64,000 bases of DNA, taken from assembly GCA_964372045.1 (NCBI GenBank), contig CAYJPO010000012.1, positions 517-64,516 of the forward strand, in the 5' to 3' direction. The notes beneath the pieces are model-generated. The model ran no database searches and was not told where the DNA came from. It saw only the letters and a program-made list of their open reading frames with translations. Shown piece after piece: positions 41,079 to 61,874 of this stretch; positions within the stretch are counted from its first letter, which is position 1, and each line of letters starts with the position of its first letter. This DNA is from an uncultured Anaerolinea sp. Lineage in GTDB: Bacteria > Chloroflexota > Anaerolineae > Anaerolineales > Villigracilaceae. The position numbers and the translations under genes were made by a program.

Positions 41079-41207
41079 GACGCCATTATACCTGCTGGTA
41101 TGGCTTTTGATGGGTTCTAAAGGGACGGAATTCCCCCAACGTAATCGGTTATACTCATGCGAGTTTCGTAATGATTCTCTAACCAATCATCTCAAGAGGC
41201 AAAAGGT

Positions 41208-44352: not shown

Positions 44353-44393
44353 ACAAAAAGTCCGCAACCTGATACGTTGCGGACTTTTTGTTT
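44351..44393. terminator. Bidirectional terminator
   Basis: 18-bp stem aaacaaaaagtccgcaac/gttgcggactttttgttt. Confidence 0.9.
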
Positions 44394-44457
44394 AACCTTC
44401 TCGCATCATCTGGACCTGAAACTGACTCGCTCCATTTGAATTTTTCGCCCCGTTGCC

Positions 44458-45287: not shown

Positions 45288-46154
45288 ATGAGCGAATTGA
45301 AATTATCGATAACAATACTTGTATCCTATGTGATCACCGTACTCGGCATCGCAAATATTGAGCGCTTTCAGGAAAGTGTCATCGACTTTAGCCCGGTCTT
45401 TTTCATCCTCATAGCGATTGTGGTTTTTTCTGAATTATTGATCACCAGTTCCCTCGTGAAGATCGGGGTTCGGCTGTCTTACTATGCAGTGATTTCATTC
45501 TGGCTGGTGGTTTATGTTCTGTTCTGGGCATTCTACCTCAAGGATAGCAAACCGATCGAAGTTCATCTGATCCAGCTTTTGTTGGTCTTGCTCTCCGCGG
45601 TGCTTGCCTATGATGTGGGGCGCAGGATCGATCAATTGGACATCACTCTGGATGGGTTATCCGCCAGTGCGTACCCGAACCGTGCCCAGGAGATACAAGC
45701 AGCGCGGGGAACCATCGCCGCCGAGATAACTCGCAGTCGTAGATATCATCATCCTTTGTCGGTTCTGGCGATCCGCCTGGGCGTACCCGAAACGGATGAT
45801 GGTTATCGAAATCTGGAGCCGATCGCGAAGGACATGTTGGAGCGTTTTGCGGTCGCAAAAACGAGTCAAATACTAAGCGACCTTGCTCGAAGCACGGATC
45901 TGGTTCTCCTCGATAAGGATCGGCAATTTGTCCTCCTTTGCCCGGAGACAAACCCTAATTCCCTGCATATCCTTGCGGAACGAATTGCAGACGCGGTCGA
46001 TCAACAACTCAAGACGAATATCGAGTGGGGAAGCGCGTCTTTCCCTGATGAAGCGCTTACATTCGATGATTTGCTGGAGACAGCTCAAAAACGGCTTTCG
46101 CCATTTGCTGTCAGCGAAGTTGCCGATAAGGTTGTAGCCAGCGATAATGGATAG
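45288..46154 (+). CDS. Membrane protein with degenerate GGDEF domain (I-site RSTD retained)
   Basis: Four TM helices; RSRRYHHPLSVL, RSTD..LDKDRQFVLLCPET, GSASFPDEA fold pattern; no GG(D/E)EF. Confidence 0.75.
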   Translation: MSELKLSITILVSYVITVLGIANIERFQESVIDFSPVFFILIAIVVFSELLITSSLVKIGVRLSYYAVISFWLVVYVLFWAFYLKDSKPIEVHLIQLLLVLLSAVLAYDVGRRIDQLDITLDGLSASAYPNRAQEIQAARGTIAAEITRSRRYHHPLSVLAIRLGVPETDDGYRNLEPIAKDMLERFAVAKTSQILSDLARSTDLVLLDKDRQFVLLCPETNPNSLHILAERIADAVDQQLKTNIEWGSASFPDEALTFDDLLETAQKRLSPFAVSEVADKVVASDNG

Positions 46155-46192: not shown

Positions 46193-46882
46193 ATGGTGAA
46201 TTTATTATTGGGTCGAACAATGAGAGATGATTGGGTGAAAAGATTTAACCCGGAGAAACGCCTCCTTACCGGACGGGCGTATTTATTTGTCAAGCGTATG
46301 ATGGATTTGGTAATTGTATTTGCTTCTGCGATATTTTGGCTGCCGTTGATGGGCTTGATTGCCCTGATCATCAGGGTTACGTCGCCGGGAGGTCCGGTCT
46401 TTTTTGTTCAAGATAGAACTGGAAAAGACGGGCATCGTTTCCGGATGTTGAAATTCAGGTCAATGGTTCCCGATGCAGATAAATTAAAGGGTACTCTGGC
46501 TAAGCTGAATTCAAAGGGGGAGCTGGCAGGACCCTTGAAATTAAAAGATGACCCGCGTATTACCCACATTGGACATATCCTTCGCAAGACCAGTCTCGAT
46601 GAACTCCCTCAAGTGATAAACGTGTTGAAGGGTGAGATGAGTCTGGTGGGTCCCCGCCCTACGTCTTGGAGTCCTACATCCTATAAACTGTGGCATACCG
46701 AACGATTGGATGTCCTCCCAGGTATCACGGGGTTATGGCAGTTGTATGGTCGTGGTGGAGAGGATTTTGATGAATGGCTTCGCTGGGACATCTTGTATAT
46801 TGAAAAGAGATCGGTGGCTTTTGATCTCATCATTTTATTTAAGACAGCGACAATTTTCTTGAAACAAAAGGGAGCCCGTTGA
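46193..46882 (+). CDS. Priming sugar-phosphate transferase (Bac_transf, WcaJ/CpsE-like)
   Basis: KRMMD, KFRSM, DDPRIT, RKTSLDELPQ, MSLVGPRP, PGITGLWQ motifs. Confidence 0.95.
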   Translation: MVNLLLGRTMRDDWVKRFNPEKRLLTGRAYLFVKRMMDLVIVFASAIFWLPLMGLIALIIRVTSPGGPVFFVQDRTGKDGHRFRMLKFRSMVPDADKLKGTLAKLNSKGELAGPLKLKDDPRITHIGHILRKTSLDELPQVINVLKGEMSLVGPRPTSWSPTSYKLWHTERLDVLPGITGLWQLYGRGGEDFDEWLRWDILYIEKRSVAFDLIILFKTATIFLKQKGAR

Positions 46883-47025: not shown

Positions 47026-47748
47026 ATGCGATGGATATACATATCACCTCATCTGGATGATGCAATTCTTTCGGCAGGTGGGCTTATTTACGATCAAGCG
47101 CGCGCCGGAAATGAGGTTGAGATCTGGACGATGGTTTGCGGCTACCCTAACGACCAAGAAGCAAGTCCGTTTGCGAGGGAGTTACACGAAAAATGGGGAT
47201 TCCATTCCATTGAAGAGACGATCCGCTCGCGAAGGGAAGAGAACCGGCTGGCAGCCAAAATCGTTGGCGCGCGAGATGTTTATTTCGATTTTATCGATTG
47301 CATCTATCGCCGCGGTCGGGATGGAAAATGGCTGTATGAAGCGAATACATTTGTCCCTCCGCAGCCGGATGATGACGGCATTCCAACTCGAATGACCCAA
47401 TCTCTGCTTGAAAGATTAAAGCCCGATGACGTGATTGTGTGTCCGCTGGCGATTGGCGGACACACCGACCATGTTATTGTGAGGCGCGCAGTCGAGAATT
47501 TGAACCGCCTCCTTTTTTATTATGCTGATATCCCTTATTTGCTTGATAATGCATCAGCGTTGGATCCGATCAAAAACATGATGCGTTCTAAACGCCAATG
47601 GATAAGCGCAAAAGGCTTGTCTGCCTGGCAGGATGGCTCTGCCGCTTATGCTTCCCAGATCACGTTGGAGTTCGAGAGCCAGAAAAAAATGCGAAGGGCG
47701 ATCGCGAGATATGGTCGTTGGAGTTTCCGGCTGTGGACCTTGCCATAG
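47026..47748 (+). CDS. PIG-L family deacetylase
   Basis: SPHLDDAILSAGG, GGHTDH, YASQI motifs. Confidence 0.88.
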   Translation: MRWIYISPHLDDAILSAGGLIYDQARAGNEVEIWTMVCGYPNDQEASPFARELHEKWGFHSIEETIRSRREENRLAAKIVGARDVYFDFIDCIYRRGRDGKWLYEANTFVPPQPDDDGIPTRMTQSLLERLKPDDVIVCPLAIGGHTDHVIVRRAVENLNRLLFYYADIPYLLDNASALDPIKNMMRSKRQWISAKGLSAWQDGSAAYASQITLEFESQKKMRRAIARYGRWSFRLWTLP

Positions 47749-47848: not shown

Positions 47849-49042
47849 ATGACGAAAAATTTCCCGGTCGATCTTATGCTCGAACAACCAGCCGGGTGGT
47901 TGCGCGCCAGTTTGCCAAAGATACAATCGGCAACCGGCTCTGTTGGTGAGTTGATCTCGCAGAGAAGTGTATCGCTGTCCGAAGCTCAAGCGGAGTACCA
48001 CAAGCGGCGATGGTTCGAACTGACCGGAACGGAACTATCGGATACGCATTTTTCCATTATTATTCCAATTCATAATGAGCGGCGTTCGCTCCCATCATTT
48101 CTTGGCGCGCTTTTATCGTCGGAACTGCCTTCGAGTGCCGATATCCAGATTGTTTTTGTTGTAAATGCGTCAAGCGATCAAAGTGCGGAATTGATCATGA
48201 ACCGGCTGGCATGTATTCATCCTCCGGCGGAAATGACTTTGCCACAATCTGTTTTCGATAAAAATTGTGAAAGGGCGGCTTTTGAGGTTTGCCATGCGAA
48301 TATCAGGTTCCTTGTTGTTGAAACACCAACTGCTGGGAAGGCAAATGCGCTCAATCTTGGAAACGAAATTGCACGGCAGCGATTTCATGCGATTGCAATA
48401 AATATCGACGCGAACAATTGGGTCGAACCTGATTCGATTGCATTAATGTTTCGTAAGGCAAAACAAAGCTTTGTGGATTCCGCTGATTCGACCGCCGTGA
48501 TCATCAATGCCAGTGAATACTGTCAACCGCGGAATACTCAGATGCAAGTTTCGGTAAAAATTAAGACTCAAAAAGCTGAAGTATCGGGGTGTATGTTCGC
48601 GTGGTCAACACAATGGATTCACGAAAATAATGGGTTTATTCAGCAGGCAATTGAAGATTATGGCATGGGGCTCCTCGCCTTATCGCAGCGAAAGCAGATT
48701 CTGGAAAGTGAAGCAAGTATTTGGGTTTACACTGCCGGGACCCCCTCTGACGAGAACAGAGAATTAGTCCGCTTCCTTTACGGTGCCATGCAATTAACCC
48801 GGCGATTTGAAAATGATCCTATTGCGATGCAGATTCTTCTCGATGATTTTCCTCACCTTCGCCCATTGCGGGGCCGAATGGAAGTTTTTCTCTCCAGCAG
48901 ACTGAAAGCAAATCAGCCATTATTAATAGCTCGTGGAATTTTGAAATGGCTGTTCAATGAGTTCCTGATCTTTAAAGCCCGCAAAATGTTAAGGAAAAAT
49001 CCGGATGGACAGACCTGGGAGCCCATCAAGAGCACTAAATAA
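47849..49042 (+). CDS. GT2/GT-A fold glycosyltransferase (divergent)
   Basis: IIIPIHNE, GKANALNLG, IDAN motifs. Confidence 0.7.
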   Translation: MTKNFPVDLMLEQPAGWLRASLPKIQSATGSVGELISQRSVSLSEAQAEYHKRRWFELTGTELSDTHFSIIIPIHNERRSLPSFLGALLSSELPSSADIQIVFVVNASSDQSAELIMNRLACIHPPAEMTLPQSVFDKNCERAAFEVCHANIRFLVVETPTAGKANALNLGNEIARQRFHAIAINIDANNWVEPDSIALMFRKAKQSFVDSADSTAVIINASEYCQPRNTQMQVSVKIKTQKAEVSGCMFAWSTQWIHENNGFIQQAIEDYGMGLLALSQRKQILESEASIWVYTAGTPSDENRELVRFLYGAMQLTRRFENDPIAMQILLDDFPHLRPLRGRMEVFLSSRLKANQPLLIARGILKWLFNEFLIFKARKMLRKNPDGQTWEPIKSTK

Positions 49043-49283: not shown

Positions 49284-50756
49284 ATGAAAATCAATAAAAC
49301 GGATAATATCTACATACTTATGGGAATAGCCTTTGCTGCCGCCAGCGCGGTAGTCACTGCCAACCCAAATGCCAAAGTTTGGTTATTAAGCGCGGCAGCA
49401 TTGCTCGCGGTTGGATTGGTCATAGCGATTTATATTAATCCTCATCTTGGTGCGTCAGTCTTGATTGTTGCGGTTTTTACCAATATATCCACGACTTTTA
49501 CCGATAATGGTTTGCCTAGCATCAACAAACCGCTTGTTGCAATGGTAGCCGCCGCCATTCTCGTCCGGTATTATAATGCTTCCCGTTTACCTGGTGGACG
49601 CGAAAAAACTGGCGGGATCGAAGCGTTCCTGTTTGTATACTTTATGGTGATAGCCCTTTCCTATGTTGCGGCAGATAATAAGGAACGCACTCTTGATGCG
49701 ATCGTAGACCTTGGAAAGGATATTGTAATTATTTACTGCTTTCTGTTTGCATTGCGGAAGCCGGAAACGTGGAAACAATCTGCCTGGATCATTATTTTCG
49801 TCACTGCATTTTTATGCCTCCTTGGAAGTTTTCAGGTGCTCACAGGTAATTATGACCAGAAATTCTTTGGTATGGCAGGTGTGGCTGCGGATGTCGGTGA
49901 ATTTTCGACCACCCAACGTATCGCCGGTCCGATCACGGAGCCGAACATTTGGGCGCAGGTTGTTGTTGCGGTCGTACCGCTGGTCATCTACAGGATCATT
50001 TATGAAAAACGCCTGCGTATGAAGTTGTTAGCTGCCGGGATCTTGGGAGTTCTCTTATTCGAGATATTAAATACATATAGCCGCGGAGCCTACCTTGGGT
50101 TGGGCGTGATCGTATTTATTATATTATTGGGGCAGCGTCCGCGCTTGCAAACCTGGTTTGGAATCGGGGCGGCAGCGGTCCTGATGTTAGTCATGCTTCC
50201 GGCTAGTTACGCCGAACGTTTTCAGACGTTGTCCCTTCTAACGCCAAGCACTGAAAATGGAATATATCAGGAGGGGTCGTTCCGTGGGCGTGCCAGTAAA
50301 ATGCTTACTGGGTTGACTATGTTCGCTCGCAATCCAATTCTGGGTGTTGGAGCATATAATTACCCTAACAATTACGAACTATACACTCAGGAAATTGGAT
50401 TGGAAACAGAGACGGGCGAACGTGACCCTCATTCTTTGTATGTTCAAATCCTGGCTGAAACTGGAATTTTAGGTGCGATCGCATTTATGGGGTTCTCGAT
50501 ATTGCTTCTGGTTACACTTTCCCGCACAAGGAAATCGATTGAACATATTGTCAAATACCAAAGTTGGGTGCCGTGGATCACGGCTATCCAGTTATCGATC
50601 GTATCATATATGGTCACCAGTACTTTTCTACATGGTGGTTACATAAGATATTTTTGGATTCTTGTCGCGCTTGCGCTGTCCGCCATTCAACTTACGGAGG
50701 AATTAGTGCTCGAGACTCATCAACATTCATCTACCGAACTGCCTTCCGCCTTATGA
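49284..50756 (+). CDS. O-antigen ligase/Wzy polymerase family membrane protein
   Basis: Multi-TM; EPNIWA, TYSRGAYL, NPILGVG, PHSLYVQILAETGILG motifs. Confidence 0.88.
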   Translation: MKINKTDNIYILMGIAFAAASAVVTANPNAKVWLLSAAALLAVGLVIAIYINPHLGASVLIVAVFTNISTTFTDNGLPSINKPLVAMVAAAILVRYYNASRLPGGREKTGGIEAFLFVYFMVIALSYVAADNKERTLDAIVDLGKDIVIIYCFLFALRKPETWKQSAWIIIFVTAFLCLLGSFQVLTGNYDQKFFGMAGVAADVGEFSTTQRIAGPITEPNIWAQVVVAVVPLVIYRIIYEKRLRMKLLAAGILGVLLFEILNTYSRGAYLGLGVIVFIILLGQRPRLQTWFGIGAAAVLMLVMLPASYAERFQTLSLLTPSTENGIYQEGSFRGRASKMLTGLTMFARNPILGVGAYNYPNNYELYTQEIGLETETGERDPHSLYVQILAETGILGAIAFMGFSILLLVTLSRTRKSIEHIVKYQSWVPWITAIQLSIVSYMVTSTFLHGGYIRYFWILVALALSAIQLTEELVLETHQHSSTELPSAL

Positions 50757-52222
50757 CCGATATTCCGATCACTGAAGATAAGGGACGACGAGTCCTGCAA
50801 AAAACGGTCCGCGGCATATTTTGGAATTTTATTGCATACGGATTGAGCAAAGTTGTCGTTTTGGTGACGACATCCATCCTCGCCAGATTGTTAAGCAAGG
50901 ATGACTTTGGTCTCGTTGCCCTGGCTGTGGTGGCGATCAATTATCTTGCGGTCATAAAAGATCTTGGTTTGGGCGTTGCTCTGATCCAAAGGCGGGAGGA
51001 TGTCAACGAAGCTGCCAATACGGTGTTTACGATCAACATCATTTTTGGCATATTCCTGTCATTGGTTTTGATTCCAATTGCTCCCCTGGTGGCAGACTAT
51101 TTTAATAATCCCATGGTCACCTCTGTATTGAGGTGGCTCGGGTTGTCGTTTTTCCTGAGTGCCATAGGATCTGTGCATGTTGTTTGGCTGATGAGGGAAT
51201 TGGATTACCGGCGAAAATTGATCCCGGATATGGGCAGTGCGTTGATCAAAGGTGCAGTCTCCATTGGACTTGCGCTGGCTGGGTATGGTGTTTGGGCGCT
51301 GGTTTTTGGGCAGCTAAGCGGCGTGTTGAGTTCCATCATCCTCTATTGGATCATTGTGCCTTGGCGGCCTCGCTTCGCATTGGACCCGAAAATCACTCGT
51401 GCTCTTATGAAATTCGGCTCCTCGATTTTTACCAGTGATATCGTTAATGTTTCGATCGACAATCTGGGCTACATCATCATTGGCAGGGTGTTTGGCGCCG
51501 TTCAACTAGGCGTCTATACATTGGCTTTTCGTCTTCCTGAGATGCTCGTCCTGGGAAATCTTTGGATCATGGCAAGTGTAACGTATCCGGCATTCGCAAA
51601 TATCCAGGATGACCTGACAAATATGCGTCGCGGTTTCTTGGGATCGATCCGTATAGTCGGGTTGATTGTAGTACCGATCTGCCTGGGATTGATCATTGCC
51701 GCTGATCCGGTCATCCGTGTTGTGTTTGGTGAGCAGTGGGCAGATGCCATCCCCATTCTTCGTATTTTGGCGTTATACACACTTATCGCGTCAGTCGGCT
51801 ATCACGTAGGGGATGTATATAAAGCAATTGGTCGCCCCGGCATTTTGTTAAATATGACGATCCTGACGTTGGTGTTAATGGGAATATCCCTGTCAATTGG
51901 TTCGCGTTTTGGGTTGGAAGGGATAGCTTGGGGATATGTTACAGCCATGTTCATCGAGCGTGTATTAAGCCTCTTTCTCGCAGCGCACTATATCAAATTA
52001 TCGCTTCGTGAGATTCTGTCACAATTGATTCCATCTACGGTGGGAGGGGCGGTCATGGCGGTTGTCACATTGGGCGTCCTTTTTTTGACGAAGGAATTTC
52101 CGGTATTTGTACAACTTGTACTGGTCGTTCTTTCGGGTGCTGTAAGTTATCTTGGTGTCTTATGGCGGACCGAACGGGAAAATCTTATCCACTTAATAGG
52201 TGTAATTCGGAGCACTGATTGA
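50753..52222 (+). CDS. wzx: Wzx flippase (PST family)
   Basis: LARLLSKDDFG, DLGLGVALIQ, GVYTLAFR, VVFGEQW motifs; ATG overlaps the upstream stop. Confidence 0.9.
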   Translation: MTDIPITEDKGRRVLQKTVRGIFWNFIAYGLSKVVVLVTTSILARLLSKDDFGLVALAVVAINYLAVIKDLGLGVALIQRREDVNEAANTVFTINIIFGIFLSLVLIPIAPLVADYFNNPMVTSVLRWLGLSFFLSAIGSVHVVWLMRELDYRRKLIPDMGSALIKGAVSIGLALAGYGVWALVFGQLSGVLSSIILYWIIVPWRPRFALDPKITRALMKFGSSIFTSDIVNVSIDNLGYIIIGRVFGAVQLGVYTLAFRLPEMLVLGNLWIMASVTYPAFANIQDDLTNMRRGFLGSIRIVGLIVVPICLGLIIAADPVIRVVFGEQWADAIPILRILALYTLIASVGYHVGDVYKAIGRPGILLNMTILTLVLMGISLSIGSRFGLEGIAWGYVTAMFIERVLSLFLAAHYIKLSLREILSQLIPSTVGGAVMAVVTLGVLFLTKEFPVFVQLVLVVLSGAVSYLGVLWRTERENLIHLIGVIRSTD

Positions 52223-52509
52223 ATAGGTTATGAAAGCTGTTTTTCCCAAATTACCCACGGATACTTCGTGTATCCATTTGATTACATCAAAATTTGTTCG
52301 GACGGACTTTCATTATAAATACTTTACAAAATCTATTTTAGATATCCAATTAAAAAAACGACATTATAATTGGTATACATTGCAAAATTGAAAGGTGAGT
52401 TAGCGCATAAAATAAATTAAAGTTTTCTGAATGTTATTATTGGTTAGCTGTTATAAAACCCTTGGTAGTTTTTTATTCCTACCTGTATTTAAGAGAAAAT
52501 GAGGCGAAT

Positions 52510-53652
52510 ATGGAATTAAATCTGTACCTTCAGACTTTAAGAAGGGGATGGTGGCTGATCTTATTGACCGTTTTAGTATCGGCGAGTGTTTCGCTCCTGA
52601 TTTCCTACTTCACGCCACCTGTATATCAGACCAGTATGCGGTTTGTCGTAGCGCCCAACCCCGATATATTTTCGAGCAGCTGGGACCTTGTTTCCAGCCT
52701 TGATACTCTGGACCGCCGTTCCATTGTAAATACCTATAAGGAACTCCTGGCAAGCCCGACTGTTTACAGACGGGATCCGGAAATTAATGCCATGGGTGTG
52801 GAGATGGAGAATTATATAATTCTCGCTGTCGTTGTGCCGGAAACAAATATCATTGAGTTGACAGTTGAAGGACCGGATGCTCCCCGGGTTGCACTTGTCG
52901 CAAATGCGGTTGGAGAACAAGCCATCAGCTACATCAATCAGTTATATCCTGTATACATTTTTAATGTTCTGGATAGACCCGCTATACCGACCACACCCAT
53001 CCGTCCATTGCCGCTTCAAAGTGCCGGGTTGGCGGTTATCTTTGGCGGCGTGATCGGTATGGCGCTTGCATTTACCAAGGAACAGTTCCAAAATACGATC
53101 GATAAGATCCGCGAACGAAGCATTATTGACGTGGTTACATCTTCTTACACGCGGGCATATTTTGAACGCAGGCTGCTCGAGGATATAACCCAACACCCGG
53201 ATGGCAGTCTTTGCATCGGGATCATCAACTTCCGCGGATTGCGCGACATGGCAGATGTGTTGCCGCAGCCCATCCACGATCGATTGCTTCATCAATTGAC
53301 CCAGATGTTGAAGGAAGAATTGCGTGGACGTGATATTGTCGGGCGCTGGGGCGCTTCGCAGTTGGCTGTATTGCTTCCATCGACTCCAAGCTCCGCTTTG
53401 GAAGCCACCTTTAATCGCATCAAGAACCACCTCTCCGATGCGATCGCTCTTGATACGACCGGTGAGATGACGGTTCGTCCTGATCCCTGTATCGGTGTGG
53501 CTTCCCATGTCCAGTTTGAATCAGACAAGGAATTGATCAAGCGCGCGGAACTCGCAGTGGAGAAAGCGTCAGCAATGAACGCGTCTGCGGTCACTATTCT
53601 TGCGAGACCCTTCGTGTTTGTGGAAGACGAATCGTTGAAGGATCTTTCGTAG
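52510..53652 (+). CDS. Wzz/CpsC-type co-polymerase fused to a degenerate GGDEF domain
   Basis: N-terminal LRRGWWLI, PPVYQTS, P..P..P.P + TM2; C-terminal D.VTSSYTR.YF..RL, RGRD-IVGRW-GASQL, IGVA. Confidence 0.8.
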   Translation: MELNLYLQTLRRGWWLILLTVLVSASVSLLISYFTPPVYQTSMRFVVAPNPDIFSSSWDLVSSLDTLDRRSIVNTYKELLASPTVYRRDPEINAMGVEMENYIILAVVVPETNIIELTVEGPDAPRVALVANAVGEQAISYINQLYPVYIFNVLDRPAIPTTPIRPLPLQSAGLAVIFGGVIGMALAFTKEQFQNTIDKIRERSIIDVVTSSYTRAYFERRLLEDITQHPDGSLCIGIINFRGLRDMADVLPQPIHDRLLHQLTQMLKEELRGRDIVGRWGASQLAVLLPSTPSSALEATFNRIKNHLSDAIALDTTGEMTVRPDPCIGVASHVQFESDKELIKRAELAVEKASAMNASAVTILARPFVFVEDESLKDLS

Positions 53653-53691
53653 ATTTTGTGGTTGATAAGTACATTGCAAAGGATGGCTTGT

Positions 53692-55950
53692 ATGCGCAAG
53701 AATATTTATAAATTTTTTGTTTTGTCCCAAATTATCCTTTTGCTGTTTACCGGTATCGGTACGGTTTCTGCAAAAGACCTCCTACAACAAACCGAGCAGG
53801 ATTCTATCTACACCTTCAAGGAGCTAGGTTATACCGAGCGGGTCATGATGGGACCTTACGACTCAGCCCGCTTGATCATCAGCCTCCCGCCGACCTGGGA
53901 ATTGACCACGAACTCGAAGATAACCCTTCGATACAAATTTAATTCCACCAATACAATTACCGGAACTGCCTTTCAGGACGGGCGTGTGGGTGGGTTCTTG
54001 ACGGTTAGATTCAATGGCGTTGTAATTGATACGATCGTACTCGATCAATACCTTCCCGTTGTCAGGGAACTCTCGATCCCGGCTGAAGCGTTAACTCCAG
54101 TTACCGAGGATGGTCGTCATGTGCTCTCGATCTTCATGGATGCCAGTTTCGATTGTGATAAGGGTAGCCAGTCTACCTTTGTCCTGTCAGCCGATTCGGC
54201 GATTGACCTGCAGCATACGGAGGTTCCGCCGGTCATTGACCTTGCTCAATTTCCGAATTCGATCTACCGTCCCGATCCGCTTATTCCGATCAATACTGTG
54301 ATGGTGATCCCCGACCAGCCCTCTGAGGTTGAGTTGCAGGCTGCGATGGCAGCCTCGTCCGGCATCGGCTCTGTGACGAATGGTGAAATGGTAATCCCTT
54401 TGATCACCGTAGGGAGCCTCAACCAGGATGTTCTGTCGACAAGCAATCTTATCTTTGTGGGTTCCCCAACCAAATTCCCTGTGCTCGGGTCTGTGGAGTT
54501 TCCCATTCAGGTGGCAAATAACAAGCTTTCTATTAATGGCGCACAAGATGACGATGGGATCATTCAGATGGCTCCTTCGCCGTGGAATCCTGCCAGGGTT
54601 GCTTATTTCATCAGCGGAAATACGGATGTAGGTATTCTGAAGGCCGGGCAAACAATAGGAACAGGATATATCGTTACCAGCGGCAGGCCGGATATTTCCG
54701 TCATTCGAAGTGTTACCCCGCAATCCAACCAGGGGGTCATTGCTGAAAATCAGACTTTTGCGGACCTTGGCTATGGAAACAGGTTGATGGGTATCGATTA
54801 TGAGCAGGAAGTAACGTATAGCTTCTTCGCATCTGCTGAACAAGCCGCTTCCACGGATGGATATTTGGATCTCATCGTCTCACGCACAAGCCTGATCGAC
54901 AAAGAAAAAAGCGGTGTTTCCGTTTTGCTTAATGGTGATTTAATCGGTACCATTGGCTTTACTGAGACGACTGAAGATCAGATCGTAATCACCCGATTTA
55001 AGTTTTTTGCAGGTCTCTTGAATCGCGGTGAAAACTACATTGATATCATCAGTAATCTTGTCCCGCTCGATGTGTGCTCGACCCAGGCTGTTTCCGGGGC
55101 AACTATTACCATTGCCGAATCTTCATTGATCCATTTGCCAACGACTTCACCTGTTGCCGGATTAGGGAATGAAGTTTTCTTGAACAGCTTCCCGGCGATG
55201 TTCCTGACGCAAAAAGATTTAAGCGACCTTTCCATTATTGTTCCATCGAATGATCCGGTTTCATGGAATTACGCCTCCCGGATCGCCTATTACGTTGGCG
55301 ACCGAGGTGGAGTGACCATTTCTGATATTAGCGTTGCATTTGGCGAAAATGTCAGTGATGAAGTTCGAAGTACAAAGAACATGATCCTCGTCGGTCGGGC
55401 GAGCATTTTGCCGGTTGTTAGTGAGATGGGCAGTGCGATGCCTGCTCCATTCGAGGCTGGCAGTGATGAGGCGATTCAGCCGTCCATGATGGTTAATTAT
55501 CGCCTTTTACCCGGTGTGAACGTCGGTTATCTTCAATTGTTCACATCGCCGTGGAATACTGATAAGGTTATCCTGGCGGTCATGGCGAATTCTCCCGAAG
55601 GGCTTCCGCTAGCCGGGGATATGATGGTTACGGATACATCGATTGAAAAACTGGGCGGGAACTTCTCAATTATCTATGGTGCCCAGGTATTGAATACGGA
55701 TACCCGTCTTGGTGTTGGCAGCGGCGGCTTAGTGAGCGAATTGCCGGTGGCTGTAACGGTTACGCCTTCCGGGATTAGCCAGGATTCACAGAATACCCCC
55801 GCAACCCCTGAGATTGAAGGACGACCAACCTGGATCATGCCGGTCTTGCTTGTCCTCCTGTTTGCAAGTTTGGTTGTTGTCGGGATCGCCATTCGCCGCA
55901 GTTTTGCAGGTTCCGCGAAAAAGATGAATGTTGAACAGGATAAAAAGTAA
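53692..55950 (+). CDS. BcsB-like (cellulose synthase subunit B family) extracytoplasmic protein with C-terminal TM
   Basis: Signal peptide; two-fold repeat TFKELGY/TFADLGY; VR(F/L)NG, SPWN motifs; single C-terminal TM helix. Confidence 0.75.
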   Translation: MRKNIYKFFVLSQIILLLFTGIGTVSAKDLLQQTEQDSIYTFKELGYTERVMMGPYDSARLIISLPPTWELTTNSKITLRYKFNSTNTITGTAFQDGRVGGFLTVRFNGVVIDTIVLDQYLPVVRELSIPAEALTPVTEDGRHVLSIFMDASFDCDKGSQSTFVLSADSAIDLQHTEVPPVIDLAQFPNSIYRPDPLIPINTVMVIPDQPSEVELQAAMAASSGIGSVTNGEMVIPLITVGSLNQDVLSTSNLIFVGSPTKFPVLGSVEFPIQVANNKLSINGAQDDDGIIQMAPSPWNPARVAYFISGNTDVGILKAGQTIGTGYIVTSGRPDISVIRSVTPQSNQGVIAENQTFADLGYGNRLMGIDYEQEVTYSFFASAEQAASTDGYLDLIVSRTSLIDKEKSGVSVLLNGDLIGTIGFTETTEDQIVITRFKFFAGLLNRGENYIDIISNLVPLDVCSTQAVSGATITIAESSLIHLPTTSPVAGLGNEVFLNSFPAMFLTQKDLSDLSIIVPSNDPVSWNYASRIAYYVGDRGGVTISDISVAFGENVSDEVRSTKNMILVGRASILPVVSEMGSAMPAPFEAGSDEAIQPSMMVNYRLLPGVNVGYLQLFTSPWNTDKVILAVMANSPEGLPLAGDMMVTDTSIEKLGGNFSIIYGAQVLNTDTRLGVGSGGLVSELPVAVTVTPSGISQDSQNTPATPEIEGRPTWIMPVLLVLLFASLVVVGIAIRRSFAGSAKKMNVEQDKK

Positions 55951-55955
55951 TAATA

Positions 55956-57137
55956 ATGGCATTTCTATTCGCGCTGATTTTTTGGTTGTCTGTTGGGTTT
56001 GTGCTCTATACCTACTTTGGCTATCCGCTGCTCATTGACCTGATGGCTCGCTTTCGCCCGAAGCCCAGTTGGTCAAGGGAGAACAAACCCACAGTAACCT
56101 TCCTGATCGCCGCATATGATGAAGAAAAACATATGCGCGAAAAGATCGAAAACACCCTCGCCCTCGATTATCCACCGGAGAAGCTGCAGATCATCGTAGC
56201 CGCTGATGGTTCGTCGGATCGAACGGTTGAAATTGCGCGTGGTTTTTCCGATCAGGGAGTTGAAGTGAGCTTTGTCCCAGAACGCGGCGGGAAGATGGCA
56301 GCCATTAAGCGCGCCATGCTTGTTGCGCGCGGAGATGTCGTTGTATTTTCAGATGCGAATAACATGTATGATAAGGAAGCAGTCGGTTATCTGGCTGCTC
56401 CTTTTGTTGATGAGAACATCGGCGCGGCAATTGGGGCGAAGCTGATCGTGGAAGATGGCAGGAGCCTCAGTTCGGCGGAAGGTCTTTATTGGAAGTACGA
56501 GTCGTGGATAAAGAAAAATGAGACCGCCGTTGGCTCATGTACTGCTGCTGCGGGGGAGATCCTCGCAATTCGCCGCTCGTTGTTTAAGGCACCCGAGGCG
56601 AATATTATCAATGACGATCGCTATATGGTTTTTGACCTCCTCCGCAGGGGATTCCGCGTGGTGTATATACCGGCAGCACGGTCCTATGAATTCGTATCGC
56701 AGTCTGCGCAGGATGAACTGACCAGGCGCTCACGCATGACGGCTGGTGCTATCCAGACGATTGCCATGTCTGCGAGCCTGCTGCCCTTCAATCGTCCCTT
56801 GGTGGCGTGGCAGATGATCTCACACAAATACTTTAGGGCATTTGTGCCTTATGCCATGATCCTCGCCCTTTTTGCTAATATTGCACTGGTGTTGCTTCAA
56901 AGCCAGACGGCCCTGCCCTTGTTGTTGCAGATGCCGGTCGCTCAGGTACTGCTTGGGCTTCAGGTCGTCTTTTATGGTATGGCAATTGTCGGTAATCTTT
57001 TCCAATTTAAGGGGCTTCTCGGAAAGTTGCTCTACCTGCCAACGTTTCTAGTGAACTCGAACTTTGCTTTGGTCTTGGGGATGCACAAATTCCTAACCAA
57101 AAAACAAACACATATCTGGAAGCGGGTCCAACGCTGA
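55956..57137 (+). CDS. Membrane GT2 glycosyltransferase (PgaC/IcaA-like)
   Basis: LIAAYDEE, DGSSD, GGKMAA, SDAN, INDD, RRSRMTAG motifs; N- and C-terminal TMs. Confidence 0.88.
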   Translation: MAFLFALIFWLSVGFVLYTYFGYPLLIDLMARFRPKPSWSRENKPTVTFLIAAYDEEKHMREKIENTLALDYPPEKLQIIVAADGSSDRTVEIARGFSDQGVEVSFVPERGGKMAAIKRAMLVARGDVVVFSDANNMYDKEAVGYLAAPFVDENIGAAIGAKLIVEDGRSLSSAEGLYWKYESWIKKNETAVGSCTAAAGEILAIRRSLFKAPEANIINDDRYMVFDLLRRGFRVVYIPAARSYEFVSQSAQDELTRRSRMTAGAIQTIAMSASLLPFNRPLVAWQMISHKYFRAFVPYAMILALFANIALVLLQSQTALPLLLQMPVAQVLLGLQVVFYGMAIVGNLFQFKGLLGKLLYLPTFLVNSNFALVLGMHKFLTKKQTHIWKRVQR

Positions 57138-57141
57138 ATCT

Positions 57142-58176
57142 ATGCCTTCATTTTTCAAACAGATCGCAAGCCCTGCAATTGGGTTGCTAATTAAGCTCGG
57201 AATATTTGATGCGGCGCGGGTTCTTTCCCCGCAGTTCCTGACCGTATTGAACTACCATCGCATTAATGATCCGGATGCGGCGGATTTTGATACCTTTGTC
57301 CCTAATGTGAGTGCAACGCCTGCAGATTTTGCCGTTCAGATGGATTACGTGAAGGAAAAATATAATGTTATCTCTTGCCAGCAACTGATTTCCTTCTTGC
57401 GAGGCAAGGCGCCCCTGCCGCCCCATGCCGCAATGATCACCTTTGATGACGGCTATTTCGATAATCTGTCCAATGCCTTTCCCATCCTCAAGGAACGAAA
57501 TCTCCCCGCGATTATCTTCCTGACCACCGGCTTTATGGGTGCCACTGCACCTTTTTACTGGGACTATATCGCTTATTGCTTTCACCATACGCAGAAAAAG
57601 TCTGCGAATTTCCCATTGGTCGGGGAACTTAGCTGGAGCGATGCGGGTTCCCGTTATCTGGCAATGATCCGCTGGATAGAAACTCTTAAGCGGATACCTG
57701 AAGCTGAAAAGCAGGAATTAATAAGTCAGGCTGGCGATATCCTTGGGGTAAATCCTCCGCCTGATGCGTTCGCCAACTTATATCTGACCTGGGATCAGGT
57801 CAGGGAAATGAGCCGCAGCGGCATCATTGAGTTTGGTTCACACACCGTTACACATCCGATCCTGACGCGTGTCGATCCTGAACAAGCCCAATACGAGATC
57901 GAAGCCTCGAAGAAACGCATCGAGCAGGAGACAGGGAAACCGGTCCTGAGCGTGGCGTACCCCAACGGCGGTGCAGCGGACTTCTCTACGGAAGTGATCT
58001 ATGCGGCTAAGGCTGTGGGGATTGAGGCAGGATTTACGTTATTACCGGGTCCCAGCCGATATGGAACTGTCGAAAGATCACCTTTCGCGATACGAAGGGT
58101 TTTCATAACGCATATCGACACCTTCCAGAGATTTGTTTTGAAGTTAAGTACGATGACAAGATTAGTTAGATCGTAA
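57142..58176 (+). CDS. Polysaccharide deacetylase (CE4/NodB)
   Basis: LNYHRI, ITFDDGY, FGSHTVTHP, AYPNG motifs. Confidence 0.92.
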   Translation: MPSFFKQIASPAIGLLIKLGIFDAARVLSPQFLTVLNYHRINDPDAADFDTFVPNVSATPADFAVQMDYVKEKYNVISCQQLISFLRGKAPLPPHAAMITFDDGYFDNLSNAFPILKERNLPAIIFLTTGFMGATAPFYWDYIAYCFHHTQKKSANFPLVGELSWSDAGSRYLAMIRWIETLKRIPEAEKQELISQAGDILGVNPPPDAFANLYLTWDQVREMSRSGIIEFGSHTVTHPILTRVDPEQAQYEIEASKKRIEQETGKPVLSVAYPNGGAADFSTEVIYAAKAVGIEAGFTLLPGPSRYGTVERSPFAIRRVFITHIDTFQRFVLKLSTMTRLVRS

Positions 58177-59451
58177 GCGTTCTGCAGGGGGAGTTGTGAC
58201 TTTAAACTGACGCAAATTCTCATACGCCTTCAAGATATCCCTTGCAATAGGCTCCCATGCAAATTGGGTGTCCGAAAGGTGTTTTGATTGTTCCCCCATT
58301 TTTTTCGCCAGATCGTCATCGCTGATGATGCGCAGGATTGCGCCTGCCAATTCGTCCGGCGCATCTGCCGGGACGAGATACCCATTTTTTCCATCCTCGA
58401 CCGCTTCCGGGAAGCCGCCAACGTTAGTCGTCACAACGGGTTTTCCAAATGCGTACGCGACCTGAAGCGCACCGCTTTGGGTGATGTTTCGATAGGGGTA
58501 CACCATGACCGTGGCAAGCTTCATCAACGGACCGATCTCTTCGATCTCCAGATACCTGCTGTCAAATACTACCCGCGCCCCCAGGTGTAGCTCTTTCACA
58601 AGTTGGTGAACTGCCGCCATATCCATTTGTTTTGTGGGCATGCCTGCTATGAGAAGTTTTGCCCGTTTGTCGCGCTCTGAGATGATCGAAAACGCCTTGA
58701 TCAGATCCGGCACACCTTTGCTTGGGGTGAGATTTCCGAAGAATGCTATCACCCGGTCGTCGGATTGGATCTCATATTTGCTTTTCAACGATTCGAGGAT
58801 TGCATCTGCGTTTTCAGGGTTTGGAAATATCTGTTCATTACCATGCCTGATGGTTAACAGCCTGTTTTCAGGGATATCGAAAAGGGATAAGAACCGCTTC
58901 TTGTTTGCTTCTCCATGAAAAAATAGAACCGAGAAATTATTGAATACCATTCCCAGGATACTGTCACTTAGACGTACCCAAAGGTTCTTTTCCGCCTCGC
59001 GGGTTTCAAACTCATGGCAGATTTGACTTAACACAAGTCCATTGCGTTTCAGCACTGAATAAAAAAAAGCTTCGAATTGGAATTGTGTTTCGCCAAATTG
59101 GGTGATATCCGGTCGGGTTTTGAGGAGATAAGCTGTTAACTGAACCCAGCCTGTAAAGAATCTGATGGCGCGAAATCCCCGACGGATCTGCCAGAAAGCT
59201 TTTATCCAGATCGCCTCAAATTTGTTCCGAGGCGGTCGCATGAGAAGCCGGTCGCCCTTCCGTGAGGGGAGATTCATTAACCGCACGACCTTAAAGTTGT
59301 GCGGAAAGTTTTCAAGCTCGTATTCGCGTGCGGTAATAAGCGAAACTTCAGCGCCTTCGTTTGCCATTGCTGTGCATAATTGGTAGGCATAATGGATCAT
59401 ACCGCCTGTGCCGCGATGTTCCACCACCGAAACTCTTATCGGATTACTCAT
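58162..59451 (-). CDS. GT4 glycosyltransferase
   Basis: FFGNLTPSKG, YPYRNITQSGALQVA, VGGFPEAV motifs. Confidence 0.9.
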   Translation of the reverse strand: MSNPIRVSVVEHRGTGGMIHYAYQLCTAMANEGAEVSLITAREYELENFPHNFKVVRLMNLPSRKGDRLLMRPPRNKFEAIWIKAFWQIRRGFRAIRFFTGWVQLTAYLLKTRPDITQFGETQFQFEAFFYSVLKRNGLVLSQICHEFETREAEKNLWVRLSDSILGMVFNNFSVLFFHGEANKKRFLSLFDIPENRLLTIRHGNEQIFPNPENADAILESLKSKYEIQSDDRVIAFFGNLTPSKGVPDLIKAFSIISERDKRAKLLIAGMPTKQMDMAAVHQLVKELHLGARVVFDSRYLEIEEIGPLMKLATVMVYPYRNITQSGALQVAYAFGKPVVTTNVGGFPEAVEDGKNGYLVPADAPDELAGAILRIISDDDLAKKMGEQSKHLSDTQFAWEPIARDILKAYENLRQFKVTTPPAERLRSN

Positions 59452-60571
59452 GTTTCACCAGTTTTGTATAAAGTTGACCGAGCGTTATCACTTGTGTGTG
59501 AATGTTGAATTTTTCTTGTGCGATCCTGAGCCCAGCGGATTCCATTGCTGCTCTCATTGCCTGATCCTGGGCGAGCAAGAGACATGCTTTCTCCAGTTGG
59601 GCTGGGTCACCCGGCTGGACTAGGAGTCCATTAACTTCATTTTCTACGATCTCCGGCACGCCGCCCACATTGGATGCAACGATGGATTTTCCGGCAGCGG
59701 TGGCTTCGATCAACACCGTTGGCAGTGCGTCGATCAGTGTTGGCAATACAAATAGATCGCTGATTGAAAGAATCTCAGGGATGTCTGGGCGTTGCCCTGC
59801 AAATGTAACCTGGTGTTCGAGGTGCGATGTTTCCACTTCATTTTTCAGCGCGGATTCGTAATCGCCCGTACCGACAATAAGGTAGTGCGCGTTGGGCAGC
59901 GAGCGGATAATGTTCGTCATTGCCTTGAGCATGAATTGGATTCCTTTTGCTTCGCGTAGGACGGCAACGGTCAAAATCAGGAACGCGTTATCGGGGATCC
60001 CTAATTCTTTTCGTTTTGCATCCCGAATATCCCCACTAACAGGTTTGAAATTGGAAGGATCGATCCCGTTATACATGGTAATTATTTTTTGCGGTTGAAT
60101 ACGACCATACTTGATGAGGTGGTCGCGAGTGCTATTGGAGACCGCGATCAATTTGGTTGAGAACAGGCGCATGCAAGCCCAGCTCAACTCATTACGCCAG
60201 TGTGAAGTTCCCTTTTGAGGGTTGTCGAGAGTATGAAGTGTGGCCGTGTTTGGAATCCGAAGCAGCCATGAACCGACACTTCCAAGCACGGTTGCAAATT
60301 CCAGTTGAGTGTGAACGAGGTCCGGTTTTTGTTGGCGAAGATACCGTAGAATTTTCGGCAAGTTGGCGGGGTGGCGCAGGTTTGGGATGGGGACAAGGTC
60401 AACGGGTATTCCGATGCGCGTCAATTCCTTCGCGATGGGATTTCCCTGTTTTATCTGGAGAGCGCACACGCGTACGTCAAATTGACTCCGGTCCATTTGT
60501 TCGAGGATCGAAAAGGTCATTTTTTCAGCCCCTCCATGACCCAATCCATCTATGATCCAAATCACACGCAT
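59444..60571 (-). CDS. GT4 glycosyltransferase
   Basis: GGAEK, AVLREAKG, DALPTVLIEA, VGGVPEIV motifs. Confidence 0.9.
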   Translation of the reverse strand: MRVIWIIDGLGHGGAEKMTFSILEQMDRSQFDVRVCALQIKQGNPIAKELTRIGIPVDLVPIPNLRHPANLPKILRYLRQQKPDLVHTQLEFATVLGSVGSWLLRIPNTATLHTLDNPQKGTSHWRNELSWACMRLFSTKLIAVSNSTRDHLIKYGRIQPQKIITMYNGIDPSNFKPVSGDIRDAKRKELGIPDNAFLILTVAVLREAKGIQFMLKAMTNIIRSLPNAHYLIVGTGDYESALKNEVETSHLEHQVTFAGQRPDIPEILSISDLFVLPTLIDALPTVLIEATAAGKSIVASNVGGVPEIVENEVNGLLVQPGDPAQLEKACLLLAQDQAMRAAMESAGLRIAQEKFNIHTQVITLGQLYTKLVKHE

Positions 60572-60572
60572 G

Positions 60573-61817
60573 TTAGTTTGCTTCCATCGTTTCTGAATGT
60601 GTTTGAACAGCTGCCGCAGACTTCATGGTATTAAATAATCCAGCAAGCTTATTCGCGTTCTTGTTCAAATTGAATTCTTGAATGACCCATTCGTGCCCAT
60701 TCCTCCCCAGTTGACTTGCTCTTTCGGGGTTTTCCTTGACTCGCATGATCGCTTCCGCCAGGGCGTTTGCGTCGGCGGGGGGAACTAGGAATCCGGTCTG
60801 GTCATCGATAACGAGTTCAGGGATACCAGTGATGCGAGTGGCGACAACCGGTAACTCACATGCCAATGCTTCCATCAATGCCACCGGTATTCCTTCGCTT
60901 ACGCTGGATTGAACGTAACAGTCCGCAGTGGGGAGCAGTTGTGCAACTTCCGTCTGGGTCTTTGCTCCCATCAATTCAACCACATCGCCGACGTTAAGGC
61001 GCATGATCTCGGCTTCGATCTTTGGACGTTCCTTGCCCTCACCAATTATTCTTAATCGGAAGGGGAAGTTCTTTTCCTTTAGCTTGGCAATCGCTTGGAT
61101 CAGATACAATTGTCCTTTTTTCCAGTGCAGCGAACCGATTTGCAGAATTTCAAATTTTTCGCCCGTGTCATTTGATTTCTTTGAAAATGGAGTGTAGTTG
61201 TTGCTGTCCACGCCGCAGCGGACGACAGTACATTTCTCGCGGACGTGATCTCCAACCAACTTTGCCATATAGTCGATATTGTAATGGGATATCGGAGTGA
61301 GAAAACTTGCGCCATCTAGTTTTGTCTTGAGCATTGCCTGACGGTCATAAATATCGTGAGAGTGTATGGTAATGCTGTATTGGATCCCCGTTAATTGGTT
61401 GATGATCCAGGCTTCGAGACCCGGGTGTGTAGCGTAATGAGCGTGGATGTGCTCAATGCCCTCGTTCGATATTTGACCTGCCGTGTAAACAGCCTTGGGG
61501 AACATATAGATCGCTCTGATAAAAAAATTGGGCGATGATAGATTTTCTTTAAAGACCTGCCAAAACAATCGCATATAGGTTCCCGGTTTTTTGGAAAATA
61601 CACGCAGGTTTTCACGGATTACATTTGCTGAAACGAATGGAATGCATTTTACGCGCGTAAGCCATCCCCGCGCTTCCTCATGGATGACGGGTTGCTTTTG
61701 GCAAATAATTGGATAAACAACGATCTCATGACCGAGCTTTTCGATCTCGATCATTTCCCTGAGAATGAATGTTTCAGACAGCAATGGGAAGCGGGATATA
61801 ATGTATGCAATTTTCAT
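60573..61817 (-). CDS. GT4 glycosyltransferase (WcaL-like)
   Basis: FPLLSETFI, HIHAHY, KKGQLYL, EGIPVALMEA motifs; start MKIAY at 61817. Confidence 0.9.
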   Translation of the reverse strand: MKIAYIISRFPLLSETFILREMIEIEKLGHEIVVYPIICQKQPVIHEEARGWLTRVKCIPFVSANVIRENLRVFSKKPGTYMRLFWQVFKENLSSPNFFIRAIYMFPKAVYTAGQISNEGIEHIHAHYATHPGLEAWIINQLTGIQYSITIHSHDIYDRQAMLKTKLDGASFLTPISHYNIDYMAKLVGDHVREKCTVVRCGVDSNNYTPFSKKSNDTGEKFEILQIGSLHWKKGQLYLIQAIAKLKEKNFPFRLRIIGEGKERPKIEAEIMRLNVGDVVELMGAKTQTEVAQLLPTADCYVQSSVSEGIPVALMEALACELPVVATRITGIPELVIDDQTGFLVPPADANALAEAIMRVKENPERASQLGRNGHEWVIQEFNLNKNANKLAGLFNTMKSAAAVQTHSETMEAN

Positions 61818-61830
61818 AAAAATAGTACCC

Positions 61831-61849
61831 TTATCATTTACAATGATAA
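61831..61849. promoter_or_regulatory. Palindrome in 57-bp divergent intergenic gap, overlapping a TACAAT -10
   Basis: TTATCATT-TAC-AATGATAA. Confidence 0.45.
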
Positions 61850-61874
61850 CCCAAAATAACACATCAGAGGAAGT

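Follow-up and report, generated by a model that had tools for sequence, protein, structure and literature searches.

How polysaccharide co-polymerases (PCPs) control Wzy polymerisation, and why many of them require a cycle of tyrosine phosphorylation by a kinase, is still debated. Tyrosine phosphorylation alters the assembly of the Wzc kinase ring, and cyclic di-GMP (c-di-GMP) cross-links GGDEF domains in PleD and WspR. PelD, an inner-membrane protein of Pseudomonas aeruginosa, has a degenerate GGDEF domain that binds c-di-GMP at an RxxD motif plus a further Arg, and it licenses polysaccharide production; in Caulobacter the c-di-GMP-binding glycosyltransferase HfsJ provides post-translational control of the Wzy-type holdfast pathway. 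Two exopolysaccharide (EPS) operons offer the nearest parallels to the locus considered here. Listeria pssA-E encodes an IcaA-like family 2 glycosyltransferase (GT2), PssC, a BcsB orthologue, PssD, and PssE, a degenerate-GGDEF receptor that binds c-di-GMP at the inhibitory site (I-site) with a Kd of 0.79 uM (PMC4125290). Bacillus subtilis ydaJ-N encodes YdaK, which has four transmembrane (TM) helices and a degenerate GGDEF domain in which R202 and D205 are required (PMC5422440). Both of these RxxD receptors activate EPS machines (PMC4125290, PMC5422440). The gene described here lies in a stretch of 64,000 nucleotides (nt), hereafter the window, of contig CAYJPO010000012.1 from an uncultured Anaerolinea sp., and encodes a PCP fused to a degenerate GGDEF domain; we call the protein PCP-GGDEF.

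PCP-GGDEF resembles Wzc of Escherichia coli, CpsC-CpsD of Streptococcus pneumoniae and CapA-CapB of Staphylococcus aureus in having two TM segments, a short alpha/beta ectodomain, a Pro/Gly-rich TM2 and a cytoplasmic regulatory domain after TM2, and in belonging to a Wzx/Wzy cluster. It differs from them in lacking a P-loop kinase, a Tyr cluster or a nearby kinase gene; in their place stands a GGDEF fold, which presumably responds to a diffusible second messenger and not to autophosphorylation. PelD, with four TM helices, a GAF and a GGDEF domain, serves the synthase-type Pel pathway and has no PCP module, unlike PCP-GGDEF, and it was absent from the matches when PCP-GGDEF was used in a sequence search of the PDB. 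HfsJ is a soluble glycosyltransferase without a GGDEF fold, unlike a co-polymerase receptor. With PssE and YdaK, PCP-GGDEF shares a degenerate active site (A-site), an RxxD motif, a membrane anchor and BcsB-like and IcaA/PgaC-like GT2 neighbours. The anchors of PssE and YdaK are, however, plain TM helices (four in YdaK) and not a PCP module, and the comparison is one of architecture rather than of sequence homology. Furthermore, the pss and yda operons are described as synthase-type with Wzx and Wzy unmentioned (PMC4125290, PMC5422440), whereas PCP-GGDEF lies in a cluster with both.

The open reading frame (ORF) on the + strand spans 52462-53652. We place the start at the ATG at 52510, as M1 and E2 are invariant in orthologues. 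The elements of the gene to which we refer are:

52510..53652, + strand, fusion of a Wzz/CpsC-like PCP and a degenerate GGDEF domain, 380 aa (Pfam, homologues, AlphaFold2 model)
52546..52611, + strand, TM1 of the PCP module, approximately residues 13-34, hydrophobic GWWLILLTVLVSASVSLLISYF within predicted helix 2-34
52978..53079, + strand, Pro-rich motif and Gly-rich TM2, residues 157-190, PAIPTTPIRPLP...GLAVIFGGVIGMALAF
53122..53571, + strand, catalytically degenerate GGDEF domain, residues 205-354 (Pfam, DgcR alignment, Foldseek)
53221..53238, + strand, IINFRG, residues 238-243, in place of the metal-binding D-I-D-x-F-K segment (DgcR and PleD alignments)
53323..53334, + strand, RGRD, residues 272-275, the RxxD primary I-site, aligned to PleD R359-D362 and DgcR RKSD
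53350..53364, + strand, GASQL, residues 281-285, in place of the GG(D/E)EF A-site (DgcR and PleD alignments)
53416..53418, + strand, R303, the second I-site Arg, at D275+28, equivalent to PleD R390

Pfam matches to both halves exceed their cut-offs: Wzz (PF02706) on residues 5-85, with 40.7 bits against 25.5, and GGDEF (PF00990) on residues 205-354, with 52.4 bits against 23.8 (E 6.6e-14). A GNVR match at residues 153-191 is weak and sub-threshold. In NCBIfam, positions 12-205 of the 226 in the CpsC-family profile TIGR01006 align to residues 5-199, with a score of 51.5 bits that is far below the cut-off of 296. Both predicted TM segments are hydrophobic. Around TM1, R12, G13, W14 and W15 are invariant in the orthologue alignment, as are P163, P166, A172, L174, A175, G179 and G183 of the Pro/Gly motif, with P160, P168 and N171 nearly so. 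TM2 thus carries G179xxxG183, and its region aligns weakly to Wzc 373-456, the end of the periplasmic domain plus TM2. An AlphaFold2 model built from a 32-sequence alignment (mean predicted local distance difference test score, pLDDT, 80) has a TM1 helix at 2-34, a small alpha/beta ectodomain, a continuous TM2-stalk helix at 168-205 and a canonical GGDEF fold. When the full-length model was compared with the PDB by Foldseek, the top matches were GGDEF domains of diguanylate cyclases (PleD, DgcR, DgcB, WspR); all of them cover the GGDEF half and are uninformative on the PCP half. The assignment of the latter as a PCP therefore comes from the Pfam and NCBIfam matches, the motifs and the weak Wzc alignment. 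A Wzz domain, two TM segments flanking an alpha/beta ectodomain, a Pro/Gly-rich TM2 and Wzy and Wzx as neighbours are all present, as in PCPs generally. This architecture and these motifs are far beyond chance and recur in at least 194 homologues.

The state of the nucleotide sites was read from HMMER alignments to DgcR (PDB 6zxm) and PleD (PDB 1w25); the domain matches DgcR with E 2e-11, or 2e-15 when the family profile is used. N240 takes the place of the metal-binding Asp (PleD D327) and A248 that of the guanine-binding Asn (N335), while D257 corresponds to D344. R279-W280 align with R366-Y367, and G281-A-S-Q-L285 with G368-G-E-E-F372, so that both acidic residues of the signature are gone (S283, Q284). 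The GGDEF fold of an active diguanylate cyclase is thus retained; its signature, metal-binding Asp and guanine-binding Asn are not, and on these residues the A-site is catalytically dead. R272, D275 and R303 align with PleD R359, D362 and R390; five residues separate D275 from the A-site and R303 stands at +28, so that I-site spacing is preserved. By alignment, this RxxD spacing and the extra Arg are those of degenerate-GGDEF I-site receptors.

In an alignment of the query and 120 homologues, all 121 sequences have R272, D275 and R303, and 120 have R274. N240 is Asn in 113 of the 121, position 248 is Ala or variable, D257 is mostly kept, and the A-site varies freely around a consensus of W-[D/G/S]-x-x-Q-L. 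The GGDEF part has a mean identity to the query of 56% and the ectodomain one of 61%; as the GGDEF half is conserved about as well as the ectodomain, it is under selection and is no decaying remnant.

These results bear out much of what the first-pass annotation, made from the sequence alone, had claimed for this gene. Its two-TM, CpsC/Wzz-like N-terminus followed by a GGDEF fold agrees with Pfam, the motifs and the model, and the combination of PF02706 and PF00990 that it proposed to look for is found above cut-off in ORF 52510-53652 and recurs in homologues. GASQL at 53350, which it took for the signature, falls exactly there and aligns on the GGEEF position of PleD and DgcR; IINFRG, which it placed in the metal-binding region, maps to 53221-53238 with N240 on PleD D327; and RGRD at 53323, which it put at the canonical I-site position, aligns to PleD R359 and D362. 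It had also named beforehand, as a result that would count against it, an RxxD not conserved in orthologues; R272 and D275 are found in all 121.

The word-indexed homologue search that returned the at least 194 homologues lists proteins of approximately 360-415 aa, all but one with both Wzz and GGDEF domains. Those with names come only from metagenome-assembled genomes of Anaerolineales/Chloroflexota, and bear no annotation beyond 'diguanylate cyclase', 'capsular polysaccharide biosynthesis protein' or 'hypothetical'. When residues 1-200, the PCP module alone, were searched exhaustively with phmmer against 1.84 billion 50%-identity representatives, 3291 matches had E <=1e-3; among the best 149 of these, 71 carry a GGDEF domain of the family type. 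Most of these 71 distant representatives retain R-G-x-D, the metal-binding Asp is absent, and none reads GGDEF or GGEEF; where they have names, they are again from Anaerolineales or Chloroflexota. Other proteins carry the same PCP module with LysM, or nothing, after TM2. The first-pass annotation did not know the architecture from the literature, and we likewise found no description of a fusion of Wzz/PCP with GGDEF or c-di-GMP in open-access full text, an absence that is no proof. The PCP-GGDEF fusion defines an uncharacterised family. DNA of the window is present in metagenomes from sediment, activated sludge and wastewater, and metatranscriptome contigs cover the PCP-GGDEF gene at a depth of approximately 1-5 in four wastewater runs; as these runs were chosen for holding the gene, such evidence of expression is weak and biased, and indicates at most that the gene is transcribed.

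If c-di-GMP stands in for tyrosine phosphorylation, a bacterial tyrosine kinase (BY-kinase) should not accompany the fusion. The first-pass annotation had noted that no such gene lies in the window. Pfam scans of window ORFs of at least 150-170 aa detected no P-loop BY-kinase, CbiA, AAA_31 or ParA domain, and phmmer with the kinase domain of P0248, run on all ORFs of 80 aa or more, in six frames, from the window and 35 loci, returned P0248 itself as the sole match, with none in the window or the other 34 loci. (A scan with a strict Walker A/A' regular expression was void, since it also missed P0248, a genuine BY-kinase; phmmer replaced it.) PCP-GGDEF thus has neither the fused nor the adjacent P-loop kinase with Tyr cluster that characterises BY-kinase-coupled co-polymerases (PCP-2).

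P0248 itself is instructive. This Anaerolineales protein of 514 aa (L035, 9921-11465) has Wzz, GNVR and CbiA/ParA/AAA_31 domains, Walker A (SSDGKSS), A' (VVLLDADLRRP) and B (VVILDSAP) motifs and a tail, SDYYSGY, and is named 'polysaccharide biosynthesis tyrosine autokinase' by one source. Over residues 1-197, which run from Met1 through TM2, its identity with the query is 33% (E 2e-30); beyond this point there is no similarity. Its locus, L035, reads 4TM-GGDEF-like protein, short priming transferase, PCP-BY-kinase, Wzx, Wzy, methyltransferase, family 4 glycosyltransferase (GT4), deacetylase, with the PCP-BY-kinase in the same slot of the gene order as PCP-GGDEF. By this alignment the degenerate GGDEF domain stands where a BY-kinase stands in a homologous PCP, which is direct comparative support for an exchange of one regulatory domain for the other.

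The genes around PCP-GGDEF in the window are as follows:

45288..46154, + strand, protein with four TM helices and a degenerate GGDEF domain (4TM-GGDEF), 288 aa (weak Pfam GGDEF match)
46193..46882, + strand, short polyprenyl-phosphate glycosylphosphotransferase (PGT), the priming enzyme, 229 aa (Pfam Bac_transf, E 5e-61)
47026..47748, + strand, PIG-L-family deacetylase (Pfam)
47849..49042, + strand, GT2 (Pfam)
49284..50756, + strand, Wzy-type polymerase, O-antigen ligase-like (Pfam Wzy_C, E 1.7e-22)
50756..52222, + strand, Wzx-type flippase (Pfam Polysacc_synt_3, E 2.8e-82)
53656..55950, + strand, BcsB-like protein with an N-terminal signal/TM and a C-terminal TM anchor, 764 aa (Pfam BcsB, E 1.6e-26)
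55956..57137, + strand, PgaC/IcaA/NodC-type membrane GT2 with one N-terminal TM and C-terminal TMs, 393 aa (Pfam Glyco_tranf_2_3)
57142..58176, + strand, PgaB/IcaB-like polysaccharide deacetylase (Pfam Polysacc_deac_1)
58162..61862, - strand, three GT4s, convergent with the PCP-GGDEF operon (Pfam)
61875..63380, + strand, DUF4832/GH42-like protein

The short PGT at 46193-46882 matches NCBIfam EPS_sugtrans and WbaP in the C-terminal domain only. The BcsB-like gene begins 3 nt past the stop codon of PCP-GGDEF, and its product covers positions 5-605 of the 606 in the Pfam BcsB profile. The best NCBIfam match of the membrane GT2 is PgaC_IcaA (E 6e-25), below cut-off, and among solved structures it is closest in sequence to the membrane GT2 of PDB 6yv7. 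The position of its Q(R/Q)xRW motif reads RRSRM: in homologues R257-R258-x-R260 is invariant and followed by a variable residue (Met in the window), so that the acceptor-stacking Trp is missing. The deacetylase at 57142-58176 has sub-threshold NCBIfam matches to PgaB (E 7e-30) and IcaB (E 2.5e-17). Neither the 287-nt interval between Wzx and PCP-GGDEF nor the region of 43-64 kb gave a meaningful Rfam match, whether to a c-di-GMP riboswitch or to another RNA, and a scan for promoters and terminators found nothing beyond chance level.

Related loci, 24 from reference genomes and seven from metagenome assemblies, were compared after classing their ORFs by tblastn and with hidden Markov models of the window proteins. 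Within the subclade of the window the order is conserved: PCP-GGDEF, BcsB-like, GT2 and deacetylase, then GT4, GT4 and Wzy/Wzx on the opposite strand. The first four keep their order in approximately 17 loci, the BcsB-like gene is directly downstream of PCP-GGDEF in all subclade loci that extend past the gene, and synteny of GT4a and GT4b extends to most related loci. Wzy and/or Wzx is present in every locus with enough flank. In more distant loci (L029/L030, L031, L033, L034 and the P0149 locus) the PCP gene directly precedes Wzy-Wzx, as is classical for a PCP; the PCP has the degenerate GGDEF domain in L029/L030, L031 and the P0149 locus, and is without it in L033/L034. The order is 4TM-GGDEF, PGT, PCP-GGDEF, Wzy, Wzx, GT2 and a 1583-aa BcsB-like protein in L029/L030; 4TM-GGDEF, PGT, GT4, GT4, PCP-GGDEF, Wzy, Wzx, GT4, GT4, GT2 and further genes, with no BcsB, in L031; and WbaP-type PGT, GT4, PCP-GGDEF, Wzy, Wzx, GT4, GT4 in the P0149 locus, where the stretch read contains no BcsB. 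In the cluster of Leptolinea sp. HRD-7 (AP024711.1, hrd7_33270), as in those of its relatives, PCP-GGDEF occurs with two BcsB-like paralogues and the membrane GT2 is absent. Because L031 and the P0149 locus do without BcsB, and Leptolinea without the GT2, neither the BcsB-like protein nor the membrane GT2 is indispensable, and the two are not coupled.

BcsB-like copies within Wzx/Wzy clusters are found at 53656-55950 (+) in the window, at 15285-20036 in L029 and at 41922-46399 in L028 (AP024711.1). To our knowledge, BcsB is otherwise tied to cellulose-type synthases. In L005 (JADJNA010000027.1, Ca. Villigracilis saccharophilus) the BcsB-like, Wzx, GT4a, PGT and 4TM-GGDEF genes each appear broken into at least two ORF pieces, probably through frameshift errors in a long-read assembly and not because they are real pseudogenes.

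On balance we think it probable, judging from residues, gene order and relatives, that PCP-GGDEF is the co-polymerase of an Anaerolineales Wzx/Wzy exopolysaccharide cluster and that its dead GGDEF domain serves as an I-site c-di-GMP receptor mounted on the TM2 helix. R272, D275 and R303 would bind c-di-GMP, probably in the form of an intercalated dimer, as happens in PleD and PssE, and binding would shift how the cytoplasmic domains of the PCP pair, oligomerise or assemble into a ring. Through the rigid TM2-stalk helix this change would reach the membrane and ectodomain parts, so that Wzy polymerisation and hand-over would be licensed only at high c-di-GMP. In the subclade of the window, the polymer would be handed to the BcsB-like scaffold and deacetylated by the PgaB-like enzyme, and the signal would probably also reach the co-transcribed BcsB-like protein, PgaC-like membrane GT2 and deacetylase.

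Several points weigh against this proposal. PCP-GGDEF is separated from Wzx by a gap of 287 nt, while PCP-GGDEF, the BcsB-like gene, the membrane GT2 and the deacetylase follow one another at 3-5 nt and look like a single transcription unit; from this stacking and that gap it follows that the direct client of PCP-GGDEF could be the module of BcsB-like protein, GT2 and deacetylase rather than Wzy. Some degenerate GGDEF domains with RxxD-like motifs fail to bind c-di-GMP, and the binding at R272, D275 and R303 is something that we infer from the alignment. The domain swap is a single comparison, with one PCP-BY-kinase relative, and the search for BY-kinases covers the window and the loci rather than whole genomes. 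Finally, 63 of the 149 nearest PCP relatives are shorter than 270 aa and have no GGDEF domain (some may be fragments); given these short relatives, the PCP works without a cytoplasmic domain in some clusters. The suggestion of the first-pass annotation that c-di-GMP replaces tyrosine phosphorylation in controlling a Wzy-type polymer has gained comparative support, from the invariance of the I-site beside a decayed A-site, the Wzx/Wzy context, the lack of a BY-kinase in the window and the other 34 loci and the P0248 swap; binding of c-di-GMP is predicted. That annotation missed the genes stacked behind PCP-GGDEF: a BcsB-like protein, a GT2 and a deacetylase are the parts of the Listeria Pss and B. 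subtilis Yda synthase-type systems, the kind with which it drew a contrast.

That stacking is an argument for the alternative that PCP-GGDEF is a PssE/YdaK-type activator of a synthase module, in which c-di-GMP binding would make it activate the GT2, much as PssE acts on PssC/PssD in Listeria; the Wzz part would be a mere anchor and the nearby Wzx and Wzy would make a separate polymer. The 3-5 nt spacers set against the 287-nt gap, the conservation of the four-gene order in approximately 17 loci and the match of the parts to pssA-E (PMC4125290) and ydaJ-N (PMC5422440) all favour it, and a pure PssE analogue of a BcsA/BcsB-like synthase was our first idea, downgraded after the distant loci and Leptolinea came into view. 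In distant members PCP-GGDEF lies directly before Wzy-Wzx, and in two of these loci no BcsB is seen in the stretch read; in Leptolinea it persists beside two BcsB-like genes in a cluster devoid of the membrane GT2. The GT2 of the window lacks the Trp of Q(R/Q)xRW and finds its best structural relative, by sequence, in 6yv7. The full set of PCP hallmarks, Pro/Gly motif and ectodomain included, is conserved, which would be unexpected of a mere anchor, and the cluster already holds a YdaK-like protein in 4TM-GGDEF. Because of the PCP position in distant loci, the Leptolinea cluster without the GT2, the Trp-less GT2 and the conserved PCP hallmarks, the Wzx/Wzy role accounts better for the data than does a PssE analogue, and we regard the synthase alternative as unlikely.

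Could the GGDEF domain instead be a structural relic, a ligand-free dimerisation or docking domain (for the priming transferase or the GT4s, for example) with no signal input? Its A-site is dead, and some degenerate GGDEF domains are known to serve as protein-interaction modules. Invariance on precisely the three residues with which PleD contacts c-di-GMP (R272, D275 and R303) is nevertheless hard to explain without a ligand, and the spacings of five residues and of +28 are kept in 121 orthologues and in most distant representatives; we consider such a relic very unlikely. An active or moonlighting cyclase, making c-di-GMP or another cyclic dinucleotide, would suit the intact GGDEF fold and the mostly kept D257 (PleD D344), but with S283 and Q284 in place of the acidic residues, Asn for the metal-binding Asp, Ala or a variable residue for the guanine-binding Asn and an A-site free to vary, it was rejected on its A-site and metal-site residues and retains almost no probability.

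The first-pass annotation also missed a second candidate receptor in the cluster, a degenerate GGDEF domain with an invariant RxxD, that of 4TM-GGDEF at 45288-46154. The AlphaFold2 model of this 288-aa protein (pLDDT 78.5) has four helices and a GGDEF fold, and Foldseek matches it to GGDEF domains. The protein has 256 homologues. Its R201-x-x-D204 and its R232, at D+28, do not vary in the family, and R-D-R-D-G-Q-F occupies the A-site. It is this protein, rather than PCP-GGDEF, that is the closer architectural match to YdaK in the cluster, with four TM helices and an I-site at the corresponding position (R202/D205 in YdaK), a likeness of architecture and not of sequence homology. In the loci compared, 4TM-GGDEF is always directly upstream of a short PGT (approximately 225-245 aa), and it was undetected in two cluster types with a full-length WbaP-type PGT, those of Leptolinea (489 aa) and of the P0149 locus (496 aa). 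This distribution, present with the short PGT and undetected with full-length WbaP, suggests that 4TM-GGDEF may stand in for the membrane/regulatory half that WbaP-type enzymes have at the N-terminus, and that it may gate initiation as a second checkpoint for c-di-GMP. The 4TM-GGDEF-like protein of the kinase-type cluster L035 has EDCD in place of RxxD, with the Arg lost, a single case.

It is possible, and we put it forward tentatively, that in Anaerolineales the cycle of BY-kinase and phosphatase by which Wzx/Wzy polymers are controlled elsewhere has been replaced by two-checkpoint c-di-GMP licensing, in which 4TM-GGDEF would gate the short PGT and PCP-GGDEF would gate polymerisation and hand-over to the BcsB-like scaffold. 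On this reading PCP-GGDEF would be the first co-polymerase with an oligomeric switch driven by a second messenger, and the BcsB-like protein the first BcsB homologue in a Wzy-type pathway. The components of such a system, a PCP, a degenerate-GGDEF I-site receptor and BcsB, are known; their combination in a Wzx/Wzy cluster with a second degenerate GGDEF domain at the priming step was not found in the open-access literature searched.

Just upstream of the EPS cluster, an ORF at 43276-44352 (+, 358 aa) has a weak Cache-like match and a HAMP domain at 248-283, with no recognisable output domain. A strong hairpin at 44336-44444, with spurious Thr_leader matches on both strands, resembles a bidirectional terminator. 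Further away, two giant ORFs (19511-26053, +, 2180 aa; 26456-39406, +, 4316 aa) consist of SdrD-B, Cna-B, DUF11 and prealbumin-like repeats, and both end in a fused Sortase domain; an adhesin-like protein with its own sortase is unusual. Next to a small TIR-domain protein at 39692-40279 (+; TIR_2, E 2e-26) lies an NYN-nuclease/OST-HTH (LOTUS) protein at 40329-41186 (-); the two, which are situated between the genes for the giant surface proteins and the EPS cluster, could form a defence-type pair. A Hanks-type Ser/Thr kinase at 9680-10669 (-) adjoins a protein with FHA and Trans_reg_C (OmpR-type DNA-binding) domains at 10856-11542 (+); this pair is approximately 40 kb from PCP-GGDEF and has no link to the EPS cluster. 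The ORF at 4361-6844 (-, 827 aa) combines a GH25 muramidase, four SH3_3 repeats and an NAGPA phosphodiester glycosidase domain.

Were the proposed role of PCP-GGDEF correct, direct post-translational control by c-di-GMP would extend from synthase-type systems (cellulose, Pel, alginate, poly-N-acetylglucosamine, Pss) to the co-polymerase of a Wzx/Wzy pathway. The BcsB-like protein would likewise be placed outside cellulose-like synthases. Since the same PCP module occurs within one order with a BY-kinase, with a degenerate GGDEF domain or with nothing, these proteins form a natural series in which the part played by the cytoplasmic domain could be tested directly. The fusion is carried by abundant filamentous Chloroflexota that live in activated sludge and sediments and whose exopolymers matter for floc formation and bulking, and it suggests an undescribed switch for slime production in these common bacteria.

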